Positions 4,421-26,966 of a stretch of DNA of 64,000 nt are shown here, piece by piece. Source of the DNA: Wickerhamiella versatilis (taxonomy: Eukaryota). Under the pieces are notes generated by a model. That model did not search any database. It saw only the letters and a list, made by a program, of their open reading frames with translations, and was not told where the DNA came from. Position 1 is the stretch's first letter. Each line of letters begins with the position of its first letter. Position numbers and translations under genes: made by a program. The DNA is taken from the NCBI GenBank assembly GCA_030867685.1, contig JAQOWU010000007.1, positions 248,001 to 312,000 of the forward strand, in the 5' to 3' direction.

Positions 4421-5527
4421 CTAAGATACAGGAACCACAGAAAAGGGGTTCGTGTCAATAGATGATATTGAAGTCATTTCATGCGGATGGGGTAATTTTT
4501 GATCAACACCCACTAGCATAGGGTCATGCTGACTGTAGGTAGGTAAGAATTCATCTTGAACATTAATTTTAGCTTCAATTTCAAGATCCTTTTTGCATCT
4601 CATAGAATGCGGGAAGGAAATTCTAGCCCTGACTACTAGAAAATACTCAACATCACTTTTTCGCCTCTCGAAGTTTGCAGCCAGAGAGTCTGGAAGGTTA
4701 ACGTTAACGTCATTCAGTTCAGTTACATTATCATGAGACTGCATCCCAATTAAAGGACCTTTGTGAATTTGATGGACTCGTGTGAAATGATTTTCATTTT
4801 GGTTCAGATCTACACTCCAGCACTCGTTGACCTTGATCTCAATCCAATCAAGATTAACCATTTCTGGGTGTGTGCAGAGAAGCGACATTTTGACATAATT
4901 CACCTTTTGCCCTAAGTAAAAAATTTCAGGGACATGAGTGGATAGATCAAGCTGCACTGGTTGTTTTTGAGGTCCGCGAATCAGGCCACATAGGCTCCTA
5001 GGGCGATAGTTTGGCGGACGTGTAGAATAGGACTTTTTGTCATTGTGTACTTGAAATACTGTCGGAGGCACTATTCCCACCGATTGAAGCTTTTCGAGAA
5101 TGATTGGTTTGAAAATGCGAATGTTCCTTTTGCTTTTGGGCCGACGGATTACCAATTTAATATACCACCTCACCCATTCATCGCTTGTTTTCTCGGAGCT
5201 GCCAAGCCACGCATCCCGATATTTCGGAATCACCAAGCTGAATGGAAAGCAATATACTCCCGGCTGCAAAATGTGAGTTTGTTTGTCTTCGCTATCACCA
5301 ATAATACGGGCCGTTTCTGTCACAACCTTTCGTTTTACGGGGAGGTTGGAAATCGCAGAGTAGGAAGCAGTAACAGATAGCATAAAATTTTCACGGCAGC
5401 ATAATTTCAAATCGAGTGCTTTGAATTGGACATCTTTTGAGAGTGAAAGTCTTACCACTCCACTTATTGTGTCCCCATTAGTATATAGAAGCCTTTCGGT
5501 TTCAATATCTATGCCATAGCTGTTCAT
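4421..5527 (-). CDS. Alpha-arrestin (ART-like ubiquitin-ligase adaptor)
   Basis: YTNGDTISGVVRL and LQPGVYCFPFSLVIP arrestin-N patterns, VEYFLVV in the C domain, C-terminal LPTY (PY) motif. Confidence 0.8.
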   Translation of the reverse strand: MNSYGIDIETERLLYTNGDTISGVVRLSLSKDVQFKALDLKLCCRENFMLSVTASYSAISNLPVKRKVVTETARIIGDSEDKQTHILQPGVYCFPFSLVIPKYRDAWLGSSEKTSDEWVRWYIKLVIRRPKSKRNIRIFKPIILEKLQSVGIVPPTVFQVHNDKKSYSTRPPNYRPRSLCGLIRGPQKQPVQLDLSTHVPEIFYLGQKVNYVKMSLLCTHPEMVNLDWIEIKVNECWSVDLNQNENHFTRVHQIHKGPLIGMQSHDNVTELNDVNVNLPDSLAANFERRKSDVEYFLVVRARISFPHSMRCKKDLEIEAKINVQDEFLPTYSQHDPMLVGVDQKLPHPHEMTSISSIDTNPFSVVPVS

Positions 5528-7064
5528 TGAGAACTAGAGGCTGCCGAGGACCAAAAAAGCCTTTATAGTGTTGCTTAAATCTATATCGCGGGCTGAGTCC
5601 AATTACCCTAACCCATTACTAGATATAAGACCGGGGTAAAATTGATAAGATGTCATATCCTTTTGCCATTAGCTGAAAAAAAAAGCAGATAATCATGATA
5701 TTTAACAATCAATAAGCAAGATATATAATACTAGTCATTGCAATCTGGTCCGGCAAAAATTGCATTGAGCTTTTTGAACATTGAACATTGATCGTCGATC
5801 TCGGACCCCGGCATCCCCTTTGTCTTGATGCCGATCAAAATAGGTATCAAAATAGGTAGTATACTAACCAGCTAACTAAAATTTAGGTGTGAGAATAGAA
5901 GAATGGCAAAAGCGTACAAAAAAGGTGACCAAAATATATCAGGTAGCCAGACGGTAACAAACCATCTTGTAAAATATCTAGAGCTCATGGTTTTAAACTG
6001 GATAAATTTACCAAGCCACTCAGCCCACATAACTATATTATATTATAGACTCCATTGGATTCATGACAAGAAAAACTCCTTTCTCTGATGTATTTGATGG
6101 ACTTATGTTAGGTCATTTAAATATGACTTACTATCTAGATCACCCATGCACGTGGCCACGCAGCGGGGAGAACACCTATTTATGATCATTTACTGGTATT
6201 CTACTTAACTTATGTTGTACTGTTGTACATAGTGCCTCCATCATCCGATATCCTCATTTTGGGATCGATAAGGATGAACGAAATCCTGAAGGTCAACATC
6301 GAGGGGCGAACGAAAATCCTGAAGGTCATCAAGAGGTGCTAAAGAATTTCAAATCTCCTGTCTAGATGAAATATAAACGATTACTTCACGAAATATATAA
6401 AGTAAGTGAAGATAACAGATGAACAGTGGAGGAGCTTATGTAAGTAACATAGCTCAAGCGTAGTGAGGTTACTGCAGATCTACGTATAGATAGTGCATGT
6501 ATTTATGATAGAGCTTGTTTAGCGAATTGACCGATACCAATCACATCATTTGGACCAAATACGACATATAAAATATATAGGCCTAAAATCAAACCCTCCC
6601 CGTTCAGCGGTGTTCAGTATGTATGTGACCAAAAGTCACTATAACGATTTATAACTCATGGTATAATCTTGATGAGCCACCCTATTGATGGAGGCGTCAA
6701 AGTTCTTAAAAAGGAATGTCAAAAATACTAAGGCTGTTCTTAAAAAAAAACCGATGACCGAAAACTACTAGAAACAAGAGCCTAGAATTCATTACTTTCA
6801 AAATTTGCAACCGTAACAGTCGTGGCAAGTAGTGCTTAGGCTAAGGCTAAACCAAGACCAGTTAGTTAGTGTGTGTGTAGTCATAATCAACGGTCGTTTA
6901 AGCGATTACTGATTATGGGGATCCATTCTAAGTAAGAGGTAAAGAATTTACATAAACTTGTGCAGTTGCATATCTGGTGGTAGCCCCCTGAGAGCATAGG
7001 GTTAAGTGAGGCTGTGTAGCAATATGGCTAGTATAAATGGTGCGAAGCATTCTCAGATCTCTTC

Positions 7065-7418
7065 ATGAGACTCTCTTATCTTTGCTTTACTGGTTTTGCT
7101 TGCACCGCACCCCTATTCCAATCTACAGCATATTTCTCTCCATCACCTGAACTCTCCCGTCAAAATGCCACAGCAGTTCCAGCTCCCAGTTCAGTAAAAC
7201 CAGATGTTTCGGCAATAGGTCATGTACGTCAATCTCAAGCCAGAGCCATTCCTTCCCAGCCAATTGTCTCAGGGGGACTAGGCAAGCGTGGAAACAGACT
7301 TTCATCACCGAAACCTTCAGCACATGGTGAGATTCCATCAGTACAACCATCGGCTATTGTCTCACGCAACATAACTACAAAAGCGCCATTGCCTCCGTCT
7401 GGTAGCCCCCGACTCTGA
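7065..7418 (+). CDS. Small secreted Ser/Pro-rich protein, unknown function
   Basis: Signal-peptide-like start MRLSYLCFTGFACTA-PL, KR dibasic site, N-glycosylation sequons NAT and NIT, TATAAA about 30 bp upstream. Confidence 0.55.
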   Translation: MRLSYLCFTGFACTAPLFQSTAYFSPSPELSRQNATAVPAPSSVKPDVSAIGHVRQSQARAIPSQPIVSGGLGKRGNRLSSPKPSAHGEIPSVQPSAIVSRNITTKAPLPPSGSPRL

Positions 7419-7641
7419 TCCATTGATGTCGTAAGTATATAGATATAGCATTTAGATTTCTAAGAGTATATAGATAAATTGAACAGGATATTAAACAAAG
7501 GCACATACAATGTGCACCGGAAATCCATTGTAATTATATATCACTCAAACCGTAAATTCTCAGTAGCATTCGTAGCTGGGTGATGTGTATGATACAGGGA
7601 CGCTGTATATACGTCTGCAATGAATTAGTTTACGAGGCTAG

Positions 7642-8133
7642 CTAGATAGAAACAGATCCTTCTTTTTCCTCAGCCATTTGTGGCTTTTCCATCGTTTTTT
7701 CTGCCCGTGCCTTGGCACGGTTAGCCCACCATCTTACCACACGACTGCCAAATAGACTGGAAGCTATGACGGAAATCAAGATAGCTCCAAATGATACTTC
7801 AAAAGCGGCCTTTGACCAACCGAGAAGCATAGACTCGTAACCTAAAAGATAGAGCAATTGACCGGGCCAGATGAACCATTTATTATAGCGCCGTACTACG
7901 GGATCGGTTTCCTGCACATCGACGTAATTATACCACTCTTTTTCCCAGCCTTCGCCACATAAAACTGACATTCTCTGGCGCACGCGCCTACCGACCAAGA
8001 CAATTGAGACAAGGCCTATCAACAAGAGCAAACCAGAGAATACAAAAGGCCCATACTTCCCAAGGTATTTTAGCGCTTCTTGAGTCGCTGGAGACGAAGG
8101 GGCTACGAATTCAACCCCGCCACCAAAGTCCAT
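7642..8133 (-). CDS. Hypothetical membrane protein (2-3 TM)
   Basis: ORF from first ATG (MDFGGG) with hydrophobic segments FVFSGLLLLIGLVSIVLV and VSFGAILISVIASSLFG and a charged C-tail. Confidence 0.6.
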   Translation of the reverse strand: MDFGGGVEFVAPSSPATQEALKYLGKYGPFVFSGLLLLIGLVSIVLVGRRVRQRMSVLCGEGWEKEWYNYVDVQETDPVVRRYNKWFIWPGQLLYLLGYESMLLGWSKAAFEVSFGAILISVIASSLFGSRVVRWWANRAKARAEKTMEKPQMAEEKEGSVSI

Positions 8134-8503
8134 CGTAATCAATATACAATGACTAAAATGGGACACACAGATAATTTCTTCACGCGTGAATCATCCCACC
8201 CTATCACAATGACTTATACGTGATTAGACTATCTTGTGACCGCAGTGCGGTGATGCTCGTACTTGTAAACGACTACTATATATAGCGTGCTCGCGATGCA
8301 GGATAGGATTTTTAAACGTTCAGCTTGGAAATGATGCAGTCGAAACTACTTAGACTATTCTATTTTATCTGTTTATAATTTGGAGCTTTTTTTTACAGTC
8401 ACATGCTAATCTCTAATCCAATAGCAAGATATTACGTGTAAGTGCGCCATTTTGAACAGCCCCTAATATGACTTAGTAAGCTACATGGATTAGGGAGGCG
8501 TGG

Positions 8504-10066
8504 ATGTATTTCTTTCGACGGAAAAGCTGCAAAGTTTTGCCGCCTATTATCGTTATTTTGGCATGTTTAATACTTTTTTACTACAGTTATACTTCGGGAT
8601 TGCCTTTCTTGGAAGTCAACCAGTCAGAACCACGGGAGCCAGTCAAAATAAATACTGATGGCGCGTCTCGAAGGGACCTTATTCACGCTATACAGAAAAT
8701 GACTGCGCTCTCGAGTAAGACGCAGGAACTTTCAGATTATATTCGCGGTATAGAGCCGGATATAAAGGGATTTGAAAATGATACTGATTTAAGAGCAACT
8801 AGCAAGCAGTTGGAAGATTATCTTCAGGTTAGTGACGAACAGATTTTAGATCTGAAGCAATTGCATGAAAGGGTCTTGGAACACATGCCATCAAGATTAC
8901 GGGAGGGTGAGTATACAGGAAAGGGTATCGTCATGAGTGCGGACGGTAGCTACTTTCCGACTGCGCTGGCTAATGTTGCCTGGATTCGCAACAGAAACTA
9001 CACATTACCTATAGAGATTTACATTCCATACCGCAGATCATGGGAAGCTGCCTGTAATGATTTTTTACCCTCCCTAAATGTAAGGTGCAAGTGTCTTGAA
9101 GAACTTTATGGGGAGAGTTTGCTGAACTCTTTCAAAGTCCCCCAAGGCAAAGAGGGCTATTTATATAAGGGCCTCTCCATATTGATGTCAGACTTTGATG
9201 AGATATATTGGATGGATCCGGACTCATTGCCACTCATTGACGTGGAAGAGGGTCTCAATGAACCCCTTTTCCAGGATATTGGTTACATTTTTACGTCCGA
9301 CTATTGGCCAAGGCTAACGTCACCTTATTTTTATGATATAACCAATGTAACCCTAGGGCCGGATGATTTCGGGACCGGCAAGAAGCTGCTGCAAGTTGAT
9401 CGAGAGAATGCTATATCAGGCTTGTCTACTGAGAGTGGCCAATTCTTTGTTAAAAAGTCACAGCATTTCAAATCTCTGGTCCTTTCCGTTTATTATAATC
9501 TCAGAGGTAGTATCTGGTGGCCGCTCCTGACCCAGGGAGGGCCGGGCGAGGGTGACAAGGAGGTATGGCCCGCTGCCGCGCAGGTTCTCGGCGAGCCATG
9601 GTATCAAACACACACACAGCCTCTTACGGCAGGATACCGCCAGAATGGTGATAAGGACGAGTTTCATGGCATGTGTATGATACAGCCTGAGTTCTCAGTA
9701 GATCATAGGACCTATGATCTTGGTCGTACTAAAACCCCACCAAAGTACATGGCTCTTCATTTTAACATGTTGAAACTCAATGTGCAACGCGTCTTACGAG
9801 ATAATGGAGGGAAAATTCCACCATTTCGATATCTGGGGAATGTGACCGAATTCCAGAAGTCTTCTCGTATAAATAGTGATATCGAACTTGAAATGTGGAC
9901 TGCTGTACGTGATTCGACCTGTAAATGGGCTGTTGAAAAAAAGTTGGTACCTAATGATTGGGAATCGCTAGATTCTGCAAGGCATTATTGTGAGATACTT
10001 GAAGAAAGGATTCAATTTTTGGCTAAGTACCCTGAAGTGCCTATATTATTGAGTGCCCAACAATAA
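8504..10066 (+). CDS. Alpha-1,2-mannosyltransferase, GT71 (MNN2/MNN5 family)
   Basis: Type II N-terminal TM, GKGIVM, TLPIEI, DPD (DxD), DYWPRLTSPYFYDI, STESGQ, QGGPGEGDKE. Confidence 0.92.
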   Translation: MYFFRRKSCKVLPPIIVILACLILFYYSYTSGLPFLEVNQSEPREPVKINTDGASRRDLIHAIQKMTALSSKTQELSDYIRGIEPDIKGFENDTDLRATSKQLEDYLQVSDEQILDLKQLHERVLEHMPSRLREGEYTGKGIVMSADGSYFPTALANVAWIRNRNYTLPIEIYIPYRRSWEAACNDFLPSLNVRCKCLEELYGESLLNSFKVPQGKEGYLYKGLSILMSDFDEIYWMDPDSLPLIDVEEGLNEPLFQDIGYIFTSDYWPRLTSPYFYDITNVTLGPDDFGTGKKLLQVDRENAISGLSTESGQFFVKKSQHFKSLVLSVYYNLRGSIWWPLLTQGGPGEGDKEVWPAAAQVLGEPWYQTHTQPLTAGYRQNGDKDEFHGMCMIQPEFSVDHRTYDLGRTKTPPKYMALHFNMLKLNVQRVLRDNGGKIPPFRYLGNVTEFQKSSRINSDIELEMWTAVRDSTCKWAVEKKLVPNDWESLDSARHYCEILEERIQFLAKYPEVPILLSAQQ

Positions 10067-21534: not shown

Positions 21535-22647
21535 TTAGGCAGAGAAGTCGATCACGACTCGACTCTTTACCTTTCCTTGCTTCAAATCATCAAAGATTTG
21601 GTTGATGTTTTCAAGCTTATCCTTCACGACATCGGGCTTCACTTTGTTTTCAGCGAAAAACCGCAAAGCCTCAACCATGTCCAACCGGGTGCCTACAATC
21701 GAGCCACGGATAGTGATCCCATTCAGAACGGTATCAAATATGCTGATAGGGAACTTCCCGGGTGGCAACCCGTTCATCACCATAACTCCTCCTCGTCTTA
21801 AATAATGCATTGCCTGCTCAAAGGCTGAAGGAGAAACAGCGGTGAGAAGAGCCCCATGTGCTCCTCCTATACTCTGAATAAATGCGGCAGGATCCTCAGT
21901 TTTGGCGTTGACAGTGTACATAGCTCCCATTTGCTTTGCCTGGTCAAGCTTAACATCGTTAATATCGACAGCTACAACATCAAACCCCATAGCAACGGCA
22001 TACTGTACAGCCAGCTGACCCAAGCCGCCTACACCGCCAATAACCACTGTCTGTCCTGAACGACATTGCGACATCTTTAATCCCTTGTACACAGTAAGTC
22101 CTGCGCACAGAACAGGTGCACAATCGTAAGCGTCAACTTCCTCTGGAACGTGGGCAACATAGTTGGGATCAGCAATAGCATATTCTGAAAATGCGCCGTT
22201 AGCCGTAAATCCACCATTCAACTGATCGTGGCATAGCGTTTCCCAGCCGCCGAGACAGTGCTCACAGTGGCCACAAGCCGAAAAAAGCCATGGAATACCC
22301 ACTCTCTCACCAACCTTTACCGAATTCACGTTGGAACCCACTTCAACAACCCTCCCCACACCTTCGTGTCCTGGTATGAAAGGGGGGGTGGCCTGCACTG
22401 GCCAGTCTCCTTCGATGGCATGAAGGTCTGTGTGGCATACACCACATGCCTCCATCTTTACAAGACAGTCGTTAAGCCCAACTTTCGGGATAGGAACTTC
22501 TTTCACCTCAAGTGGGGATCCCAGCTTGGTACAAACCGCTGCTTTCATGGTACCATCGAGATAGCGAGGGCAACTACTGTGAAGTCCGCGCAAGCCGACA
22601 CGCGACGTGCTTGCGTATCGAAAAGTACTATTCAGGAAACGCAACAT
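21535..22647 (-). CDS. ADH1: Zn-dependent alcohol dehydrogenase, bacterial AdhP/AdhA type, with N-terminal mitochondrial-type presequence
   Basis: GVCHTDLH, GHEGVG, structural Zn Cys cluster CGHCEHCLGGWETLC, GVGGLG, GSIVGTRLD. Start at MLRFLN (22647), preceded by TATAAAA; the core begins MKAAV at 22548. Confidence 0.92.
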   Translation of the reverse strand: MLRFLNSTFRYASTSRVGLRGLHSSCPRYLDGTMKAAVCTKLGSPLEVKEVPIPKVGLNDCLVKMEACGVCHTDLHAIEGDWPVQATPPFIPGHEGVGRVVEVGSNVNSVKVGERVGIPWLFSACGHCEHCLGGWETLCHDQLNGGFTANGAFSEYAIADPNYVAHVPEEVDAYDCAPVLCAGLTVYKGLKMSQCRSGQTVVIGGVGGLGQLAVQYAVAMGFDVVAVDINDVKLDQAKQMGAMYTVNAKTEDPAAFIQSIGGAHGALLTAVSPSAFEQAMHYLRRGGVMVMNGLPPGKFPISIFDTVLNGITIRGSIVGTRLDMVEALRFFAENKVKPDVVKDKLENINQIFDDLKQGKVKSRVVIDFSA

Positions 22648-22974
22648 GTGTTGTGTGTGAGTGTGCGACACTTTGACGTAATCCCGCCTCGGCAGATTCT
22701 TTTTATACACCCAAACCACCCCGCACGTCCCCGTTGGGTGCAACCCTAAGCGAGCAGGGTAGAGGGAGTCGGAGATGGTTAGATAGTCCCAACAGGATGA
22801 GAAGAAATTTTTTCTTTTTGTCGGAGCGATATGTATAAGTTTTTCCTGCGCAACTAAAGTTGGTCTCTAATCGCTTCTGGAAAGGTATCCAATTAGCCGA
22901 AAACCTGTTTATGTGTTTTACAGGGCTATTTTAGAATAATCTTCTTAAGTAACGCTTAATACATATTATAATGC

Positions 22975-23022
22975 AGGTTGGTATGTCCGGAGGTTGGTGT
23001 GACCGGAGGTTGGTGTAAGCGG
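22975..23022. repeat. Imperfect tandem repeat 3 x 16 bp (AGGTTGGTRTNNNCGG) upstream of ADH
   Basis: aggttggtatgtccgg / aggttggtgtgaccgg / aggttggtgtaagcgg read directly. Confidence 0.85.
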
Positions 23023-23891
23023 AGCTTATCCTTGGGAAAACGTCGGGCCTATGGAATAACGTCATCATCATGCGGAAAAAGGAGATCTGTTATTTCCCAT
23101 CAAAACACAGCTAGTCGTACAGGAATACCGGCATATACATATAGAAAACTGCATAGTGTATCATTTGTTATGAAGCCCTTTTCGATTACAGCTTCTGATC
23201 TAATCAAGATCGGTAGCGTCATTTTTATCGGGTTTCACGAAAAACGGTGACATATTCCGTCACCCAGCTCACTCTACAGGAAATATCACCGAAAAAACCC
23301 CATCCTGTGATGGCACACGCAAGTAGACTACCAGAAACTTGAGCAGTTTGTTAATCGACAGACATGTAACGTCTCGTTTAATGTACGTGTTAGTAACAAT
23401 CCATAGCCGCCATGCGACGCTGAGTGTCGTTTGTCAGTAGCTTTGTTGAAGCAATCTGAGCACTTCGAGCTGAGTTTACAATATGGATGGCGTTAGGGTT
23501 TTATTTCCAAGCTATATTGACTGTAACTTTAATAACTTATGTGCTGTCTCGTATGAATCGCTATTAATCCGTGTATTATGTCATCATATGCGGGGAAAAG
23601 CAACGCACGGTTGGTCGGCTGCGCCTAGGGATGATTCCTAAATCGCGTTTTTGGTGACGTCACAGGCAATGTTCTTACGCAACTACTATGTGCTACACGT
23701 TATAATGGCCAGTTTTTAATACGTTTCAAGTTTCTTTCAACTAAATACGCTGTTGCCTGATCTCCTATTGCAAGCAAAACTGTGTTCTTCGAAATTGCCA
23801 TCTTCTCTGCTGGTCAAAGAACGAATATAATCCTTGCTATCGACCTCTCAGAGTAGGAGTAATTATCCCTTCATGTCCACAGTAGCAGAGA

Positions 23892-26330: not shown

Positions 26331-26966
26331 ATGTCATCATTGTATTTGTCAGGAATCGGTTCCAGAAGGTTTGTGACGCTATCTTTTTCAAGTATAAGAA
26401 GTTACTCAGGAATTTCCGTCAAAGCCATGCAGCCTCAAAGTGTTCTAGACTTCTGGTTCCATGCTGATATGAAGCCCTACTGGTTTGCTCGAAGTGATCA
26501 AGTTGATGAACAGATTAGCACGAAATTTAAGGAGACGTGGAAAAGTGCCAGTCAGGCAGAGCTTTGGGCTTGGCGCGATAGTGCAGAAGGCTGCCTGGCG
26601 GAAATCATAGTGTTGGATCAGTTTTCCCGCAACTTATTCCGAAATTCCCGCTTGGCATTTGCGCAGGACCCGCTAGCTTTAGGTTTGGCCCAGCAAGCTA
26701 TCAGACATGGTTTGGATAAAGCCCTGACACCAGAGCAACGTCTTTTTCTATATTTGCCGTTCATGCATAGTGAGTCGGTCCTCATCCATGAGTGCGCCTT
26801 GAAACTGTTCGGGGATCTTGGCAATCCCCAGTCATTAGACTTCGAGAAGAAGCATAAAATAATAATCGACAAATTTGGGCGATATCCGCATCGCAATTCT
26901 GTCTTAGGTCGCACATCAAGCCCAGAAGAGACCGAGTTCCTAAGTCAACCTGGCTCAGGGTTTTAG
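26331..26966 (+). CDS. DUF924 family protein (bacterial-like core) with N-terminal mitochondrial-type presequence
   Basis: VLDFWF, LAEIIVLDQFSRN, FLYLPFMHSE, FGRYPHRNSVLGR, FLSQPGSGF; Ser/Arg-rich leader before MQPQ (26427). Confidence 0.9.
   Translation: MSSLYLSGIGSRRFVTLSFSSIRSYSGISVKAMQPQSVLDFWFHADMKPYWFARSDQVDEQISTKFKETWKSASQAELWAWRDSAEGCLAEIIVLDQFSRNLFRNSRLAFAQDPLALGLAQQAIRHGLDKALTPEQRLFLYLPFMHSESVLIHECALKLFGDLGNPQSLDFEKKHKIIIDKFGRYPHRNSVLGRTSSPEETEFLSQPGSGF

Follow-up and report, generated by a model that had tools for sequence, protein, structure and literature searches.

A bacterial-type alcohol dehydrogenase of the yeast Wickerhamiella versatilis with a predicted mitochondrial presequence

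One of the three bacterial-type alcohol dehydrogenase (Adh) genes of the yeast Wickerhamiella versatilis encodes an N-terminal leader that is most probably a mitochondrial presequence, which would place the enzyme in the matrix. Judged from its sequence, the protein, named P0001, is predicted to be an imported matrix Adh that was derived from a bacterial gene after duplication and is a functional counterpart of Adh3; we give this reading a probability of about 0.78. The Acetobacteraceae origin of Adh1 in W/S yeasts has been reported (PMC5897096), and three copies of it are found in W. versatilis (PMC11140947). Bacterial ADH1 in W/S yeasts is thus already known, whereas the leader on it appears to be unreported. 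The gene is located on the minus strand of the window, which is the whole stretch of 64,000 nucleotides that was analysed.

The gene is an uninterrupted open reading frame of 370 codons, running from 22647 to 21535. As described in the initial annotation, it begins with a leader of 33 amino acid residues, which precedes the sequence MKAAV at 22548; the leader is rich in Arg and has no acidic residue among its first 30. The gene and its upstream region comprise the following features.

22701 to 22707, minus strand: putative TATA box, TATAAAA, whose first base is 33 nt upstream of the main transcription start
22648 to 22674, minus strand: main transcription start (22674) and 27-nt CA-rich 5' leader without ATG, from RNA 5' ends
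22561 to 22647, minus strand: predicted mitochondrial presequence, residues 1-29, from composition, pLDDT and the orthologue P0003; it has no counterpart in the closest bacterial AdhPs
22609 to 22641, minus strand: best amphipathic segment, residues 3-13, with a helical moment of 0.72
22561 to 22590, minus strand: R-10 type MPP/Oct1 motif Arg20-Tyr29, RG↓LHSSCPRY↓ (arrows, predicted cleavage), from a motif match; predicted mature start Leu30
21535 to 22560, minus strand: zinc-dependent AdhP-type alcohol dehydrogenase body, from the NF006940 score and the zinc ligands

The body matches the NCBIfam AdhP profile NF006940, which begins at residue 34, with a score of 363.5 bits against a curated cut-off of 344, while P0003 scores 348.4 bits. 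Residues Cys71, His94, Cys181, Cys125, Cys128, Cys131, Cys139 and Asp228 are invariant in an alignment of 17 rows, A1. By reference to the MDR family, we take Cys71, His94 and Cys181 to be the ligands of the catalytic zinc, Cys125, Cys128, Cys131 and Cys139 to be those of the structural zinc, and Asp228 to be the NAD-specificity position. The Rossmann Gly motif and the acidic NAD-specificity residue are both present. By its score the protein is an AdhP, and it is predicted to be an ethanol/acetaldehyde enzyme. In the structure model, which was built from the 17-row alignment, residues 1-28 have a pLDDT below 50, and residues 121-148 are not resolved either. A 391-residue protein, P0002, corresponds to the same gene with its start called upstream of the mapped 5' end, and it was discarded as a gene-calling artefact.

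Four RNA runs from two studies were mapped onto the segment 22150-22899. Read ends that bear an adaptor, presumably the template-switch adaptor, pile up at 22674, with 270, 551 and 267 reads in runs X18, X19 and X20, respectively. A minor start is located near 22665, with 15, 39 and 23 adaptor-marked reads in the same runs, and in run X15, 115 and 93 molecules end at 22665. RNA depth is high across the leader and is about 1% beyond 22675. The ATG at 22647 (ATG1) is the first ATG of the mRNA, with no other upstream, and the four runs have no joints across 22150-22899 that would indicate an intron in the leader. With 5' ends at 22674 and no intron, the leader is N-terminal and is read from the first AUG. 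Within the mapped span, there are seven fixed differences between RNA and window in the body, and none is listed in the leader codons. In the CA-rich 5' leader, at 22651-22660, the window and the RNA reads differ by one substitution and a two-base insertion. The main 5' ends are therefore upstream of ATG1 and not downstream of 22647, which is compatible with the leader-bearing enzyme of the initial annotation. Its suggestion that alternative start use could yield two isoforms finds very little support in the transcription starts: among the positions listed, the adaptor-marked ends between ATG1 and Met34 are 11 reads at 22628 in one of the three adaptor-bearing runs, X19, against 289-590 reads per run upstream of ATG1. 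Also among the positions listed, 5 adaptor-marked reads are found at 22500 in X20, past Met34.

The first 30 residues include 5 Arg and no Asp or Glu, for a net charge of +5, and the best helical moment over 11 residues is 0.72. A home-made presequence filter was applied, with thresholds that were fixed after seeing the query (Arg ≥3, acidic residues ≤1, net charge ≥+4, moment ≥0.6). It passes 5 of 7 presumed native mitochondrial proteins of the genome, whose identities were assigned from their families. The Complex I 51K subunit, an Oct1-like peptidase, two ALDHs and a D-lactate dehydrogenase-like protein pass, and two other ALDH-family proteins fail. As background, the filter was also run on 200 kb of other regions, where it lets through 3 of 91 ORF starts, and on 1194 internal windows, of which 7 pass. 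It also passes 59 of 674 short spurious Met-started frames, or 6 of the 674 if the R-10 motif is required as well. Composition alone is thus modest or weak evidence, and flanking DNA can readily give rise to leaders of this kind. Stronger evidence is provided by the RNA 5' ends upstream of ATG1 and by the conserved leader of P0003.

The MPP/Oct1 motif is given as RX↓(F/L/I)XX(T/S/G)XXXX↓ in PMC3128517. It is found at Arg20 in both P0001 and P0003; of 88 other N-termini, 7 have it too. A degenerate DNA pattern for this type of motif is not enriched, with 63 matches against 61 in the control, and one other long ORF among the 30 loci examined has such a motif near its start. The Oct1-like peptidase encoded in the genome is of the M3 family. 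An N-terminal Leu is destabilising under the N-end rule, and since the Oct1 cut would expose Leu30, it is not certain that this second cut, or a further trim, takes place.

P0003 is an orthologue of 370 residues with 78% identity overall. Its leader also has 33 residues and a net charge of +5, with a moment of 0.80, and it keeps MLR, Arg16, RGLHSS and the register of the motif. The two proteins have identical residues at 15 of 33 positions of the leader and 274 of 337 positions of the body, a comparison that involves a single orthologue, at the level of protein sequence. Presequences are known for fast turnover with a conserved charge and cleavage motif, and the leader pair behaves as presequences do. 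The conservation of length, charge and motif is in line with the initial annotation, which had further described the leader as grafted. Searches of the genome itself with the leader DNA and protein return the locus alone, and in the protein collection the leader region matches P0002 and P0003 alone. With no donor found, a graft is unproven and a de novo origin is just as likely. Because short presequences diverge fast, the absence of a graft source is no proof of a de novo origin; the leader may have come from extension into upstream DNA or from a graft that is now unrecognisable.

The junction between leader and body comprises three features.

22558 to 22560, minus strand: Leu30 (CTC), at the initiator-Met position of the closest bacterial AdhPs, from alignment A1 and the codon
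22546 to 22548, minus strand: Met34, which corresponds to an internal residue, Met5, in Acetobacteraceae AdhP; it opens the first β-strand of the structure model and has A at -3
22545 to 22556, minus strand: out-of-frame ORF of three codons, with a stop that overlaps the codon of Met34, from the sequence

MKAAV had been regarded as the place where AdhP-type proteins begin, which is correct for distant AdhPs but not for most of the closest bacterial ones, in which this Met is residue 5. Of the 117 closest bacterial matches, which are largely near-duplicates and whose start positions are gene-caller predictions, 107 have the equivalent of Met34 as residue 5 and 3 have it as residue 1. In the other seven it is at 4, 6, 9 or 15, or is not matched properly. 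In alignment A1, the bacterial segment M-[SA]-[GD]-[KT]-M maps onto L30-D31-G32-T33-M34. Since the Met equivalent is residue 5 in 107 of 117, the donor-type start has been lost and is now Leu30, and the added part is 29 residues long. Met34, once interpreted as a retained bacterial start codon, corresponds to the internal Met5. From Leu30, the predicted mature enzyme has the bacterial length.

The closest named matches of the body are AdhPs of Gluconobacter and Acetobacter, with identities of 66-67%. The genome has three AdhP-type genes, the leader-bearing copy and two paralogues, L002 and L003, which are 346 residues each, have no leader, and are 64-66% identical to the leader-bearing copy. 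No native Adh1/Adh3 was found in the genome with the query P0184, a presequence-bearing Adh that was labelled fungal-like in the present analysis; the three AdhP-type genes come first, with identities of 39-41%, and nothing in the genome is closer. In a tree of 43 rows, of which 37 are bacterial and were hand-picked from the 117 matches, the six yeast-type rows are on one side of one branch, with support of 100/99. In a rooted tree of 28 rows (LG+G4), which carries a long-branch warning among the outgroups, the six rows are sister to 11 Acetobacteraceae rows (97/99). A constraint that groups P0001 and P0003 with three fungal-like Adhs was rejected (p-AU 0.004). This test and the P0184 search both argue against vertical descent from fungal Adh1/Adh3, and the grouping with Acetobacteraceae, and not with native fungal Adh, is that of the W/S Adh1a xenologs. 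Matches and tree thus support the bacterial origin proposed at the outset, here Acetobacteraceae-related, and the P0184 search and tree agree with the companion claim that W/S yeasts lost the native ADH1 and regained a bacterial one. The leader-bearing pair is sister to the group of four leaderless rows, so that, on the sequences, a single bacterial transfer followed by duplication would fit best. The leader-bearing branch is less changed than the leaderless branch. In L002 and L003, two residues are inserted after the substrate-pocket Trp and the branch is longer than that of the leader-bearing copy; their specificity may be altered. No Starmerella Adh1a was recognisable in a profile search, a metagenome scan and a search of representatives; the best identities in the metagenome scan for further W/S Adh1 were 59-65%.

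It is improbable that the extension is a tolerated, non-targeting N-terminal tail on a cytosolic enzyme. About 9% of the spurious Met-started frames pass the composition filter and 15 of the 33 leader residues are shared with P0003, as such a tail would allow, but length, start, charge and the cleavage-type motif are kept though the orthologue body differs at 19% of sites, and the conserved residues cluster at MLR and Arg20-Tyr29. A role of the leader as a peroxisomal PTS2, or as a sorting signal of another kind, is very unlikely. The PTS2 consensus is a nonapeptide, R-[LVIQ]-x5-[HQ]-[LAF]; P0001 and P0003 both keep a near-match, R-[VI]-x5-H-S, but the strict and the loose consensus both fail, with Ser in place of L/A/F in both proteins. 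Furthermore, the leader lacks the hydrophobic core of a secretion signal, and the C-terminus does not resemble a PTS1. Also unlikely is a dual-localised gene, in which leaky scanning past ATG1 would give a meaningful cytosolic isoform from Met34 in addition to the mitochondrial form. In its favour, the base at -3 is C for ATG1 and A for Met34, Met34 is present in P0001 and P0003 and is replaced in all four cytosolic-type paralogues, and the 11 ends at 22628 could mark a shorter transcript. However, these 11 compare with 590 upstream reads in X19, and none are among the positions listed for X18 and X20. The out-of-frame ATG at 22556 would be met first and its ORF overlaps Met34, and the Met is conserved in bacteria as an internal residue (115 of 116 matched). 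The preference at -3 looks weak in this genome (A 28, G 27, T 20 and C 16 in 91 crude ORFs), and C is found at this position in the Complex I 51K gene as well. Moreover, two highly expressed leaderless paralogues already provide cytosolic enzyme.

A matrix Adh of bacterial origin, the reading that we prefer, could have come about as follows. The lineage would have lost its native Adh1/Adh3 and taken up one Acetobacteraceae-related adhP, which would then have duplicated. One branch would have given rise to the two leaderless cytosolic enzymes, and the other would have gained the 29-residue extension before the old bacterial start, now Leu30. In the mRNA a 5' leader of 27 nt precedes the new ATG, and by the first-AUG rule the main product should carry the extension. 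Import into the matrix, with an MPP cut after Gly21 and probably an Oct1 cut after Tyr29, would yield an enzyme of bacterial length. Together with the cytosolic paralogues, it would interconvert ethanol and acetaldehyde, linked to NAD, on both sides of the inner membrane, which is the arrangement behind the Adh3 redox shuttle. Such a shuttle needs a cytosolic and a mitochondrial NAD-linked Adh (PMC7376551). Given a matrix location, a shuttle during growth on sugar has about an even chance, ethanol oxidation that feeds Complex I has a lesser but appreciable one, and the reduction of other aldehydes has a small one. The data do not separate the shuttle role, which is plausible, from matrix ethanol oxidation, which would involve the same enzyme in the same place. 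Ethanol oxidation is a close rival, since the genome encodes an intact 51K subunit of Complex I, two type II NADH dehydrogenases and two ALDHs whose starts are presequence-like. The 51K gene, L022 (G000:C8:385938-386462), has a presequence-like start of its own; some Starmerella species have no Complex I genes.

It is doubtful that the main job of a mitochondrial Adh would be net ethanol oxidation with ALDH, passing NADH to the proton-pumping Complex I, and not the export of matrix NADH. The Complex I subunit and the two ALDHs are consistent with it, the same arrangement is described for Cyberlindnera jadinii (PMC13488300), and an Ady2-family transporter gene adjoins adhP in the published gene order (PMC13376923). 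However, Ady2 is ~69 kb away in the present assembly, and mid-exponential cultures on glucose already show very high expression. In the W. versatilis table of PMC13376923, the syntenic adhP row, which we took as the counterpart of the window gene by gene order, has 2549, 2364 and 1486 TPM in YNB and 1039, 1138 and 866 TPM in YPD, and it is not differentially expressed. The same paper has two other highly expressed adhP rows, one with 706-1280 and 4748-9598 and the other with 732-1787 and 188-619. High expression on glucose in a fermenting species fits an Adh3-like role.

Supplementary Data 6 of PMC13376923 gives a bacterial catalase, MnaT, a purple acid phosphatase, an orphan and adhP in succession for W. 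versatilis, and the window has the same gene order. Relative to the published order, there is an apparent inversion of ~70 kb, with ends at ~22900-23890 of the window and at G000:C7 ~340300-340670; no repeats were found at these ends, and it could be a strain difference or an assembly artefact. In the published order the gene after adhP belongs to the Ady2 family, and the two would be in head-to-head orientation, while here an NCS1 permease and a DUF924 protein are found. The window (1060-63805) has many families of bacterial or mould type, including epoxide hydrolase, GNAT, GH3 glucosidase, sulfatase, flavodoxin-like and GMC oxidoreductase proteins. This content agrees with the xenolog-rich chromosome-end domains in PMC13376923.

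The DUF924 protein (26331-26966, plus strand) is 59% identical to an Acinetobacter protein over residues 30-211, and the published table (PMC13376923) counts it among the bacterial transfers. It has ~30 extra N-terminal residues, rich in Ser and Arg and free of acidic residues, with a net charge of +3 and a moment of 0.55, which is below the filter; it could be a second candidate for mitochondrial retargeting. Two MDR dehydrogenases, L015:1393-2595 (plus strand) and L009:1498-2697 (minus strand), are 58-62% identical to proteobacterial plasmid proteins from residues 31-35 onward, and each has a basic, acid-free N-terminal extension of ~30 residues; the extension of L013 is shorter. L015 passes the presequence filter (net +5, moment 0.78), and L009 fails (net +3). 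With slightly less than even confidence, we suggest that a lost two-compartment Adh system and its redox shuttle may have been rebuilt from one bacterial gene by duplication and a de novo presequence, within a repeated mitochondrial retargeting of bacterial xenologs that would include at least three more, the DUF924 protein and the two MDR dehydrogenases.

The regained bacterial ADH1 of W/S yeasts has so far been treated as restoring cytosolic fermentation. If one copy goes to the matrix, the compartment split of Adh1 and Adh3 would have been restored too. Such convergence would suggest strong selection for a mitochondrial isozyme, and it offers a role for one of the three copies of W. versatilis type. 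The locus would also be a clean case of the gain of an organelle address, in which the former start position, the present start, the promoter and the leader of an orthologue can all be seen. A literature search, made mostly outside subscription papers, found no report of a mitochondrial leader in W/S Adh1. Mitochondria go unmentioned in the available portions of the W/S fermentation papers PMC5897096 and PMC11140947, including supplements, and are mentioned once, in an unrelated context, in each of PMC13376923 and PMC12461148.

The present enzyme shares with the W/S Adh1a xenologs (PMC5897096, PMC11140947) the donor group and the family, and there are three ADH1 genes in W. versatilis, as here; the available portions of these papers and of PMC13376923 do not report a leader of this kind or the compartment split proposed here. 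Like Adh3 of Saccharomyces cerevisiae and other native mitochondrial yeast Adhs (e.g. Adh isozyme III, PDB-id 5yat), it is an NAD-type zinc MDR enzyme with a presequence of cleavable type, here predicted, and with cytosolic isozymes beside it. However, it is not their orthologue: its identity is ~40% with a fungal-like Adh that bears a presequence and 67% with Gluconobacter. Its leader is unrelated and its shuttle is a prediction. The mitochondrial Adh of C. jadinii (PMC13488300) is likewise an abundant, presequence-bearing Adh in a yeast with Complex I, but it is presumably native and was studied on ethanol, whereas the expression figures given here are for glucose. Acetobacteraceae AdhPs (NF006940) are 62-67% identical to the yeast Adh, with all zinc ligands and the same fold; the yeast Adh differs in the 29-residue extension, the Leu at the initiator Met position and the eukaryotic TATA promoter. 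The gain of N-terminal targeting peptides by bacterial genes transferred to eukaryotes, through endosymbiosis or lateral transfer, is a known kind of event. Compared with other such gains, the one proposed here would have followed a duplication and would restore a lost two-compartment isozyme pair in a budding yeast.
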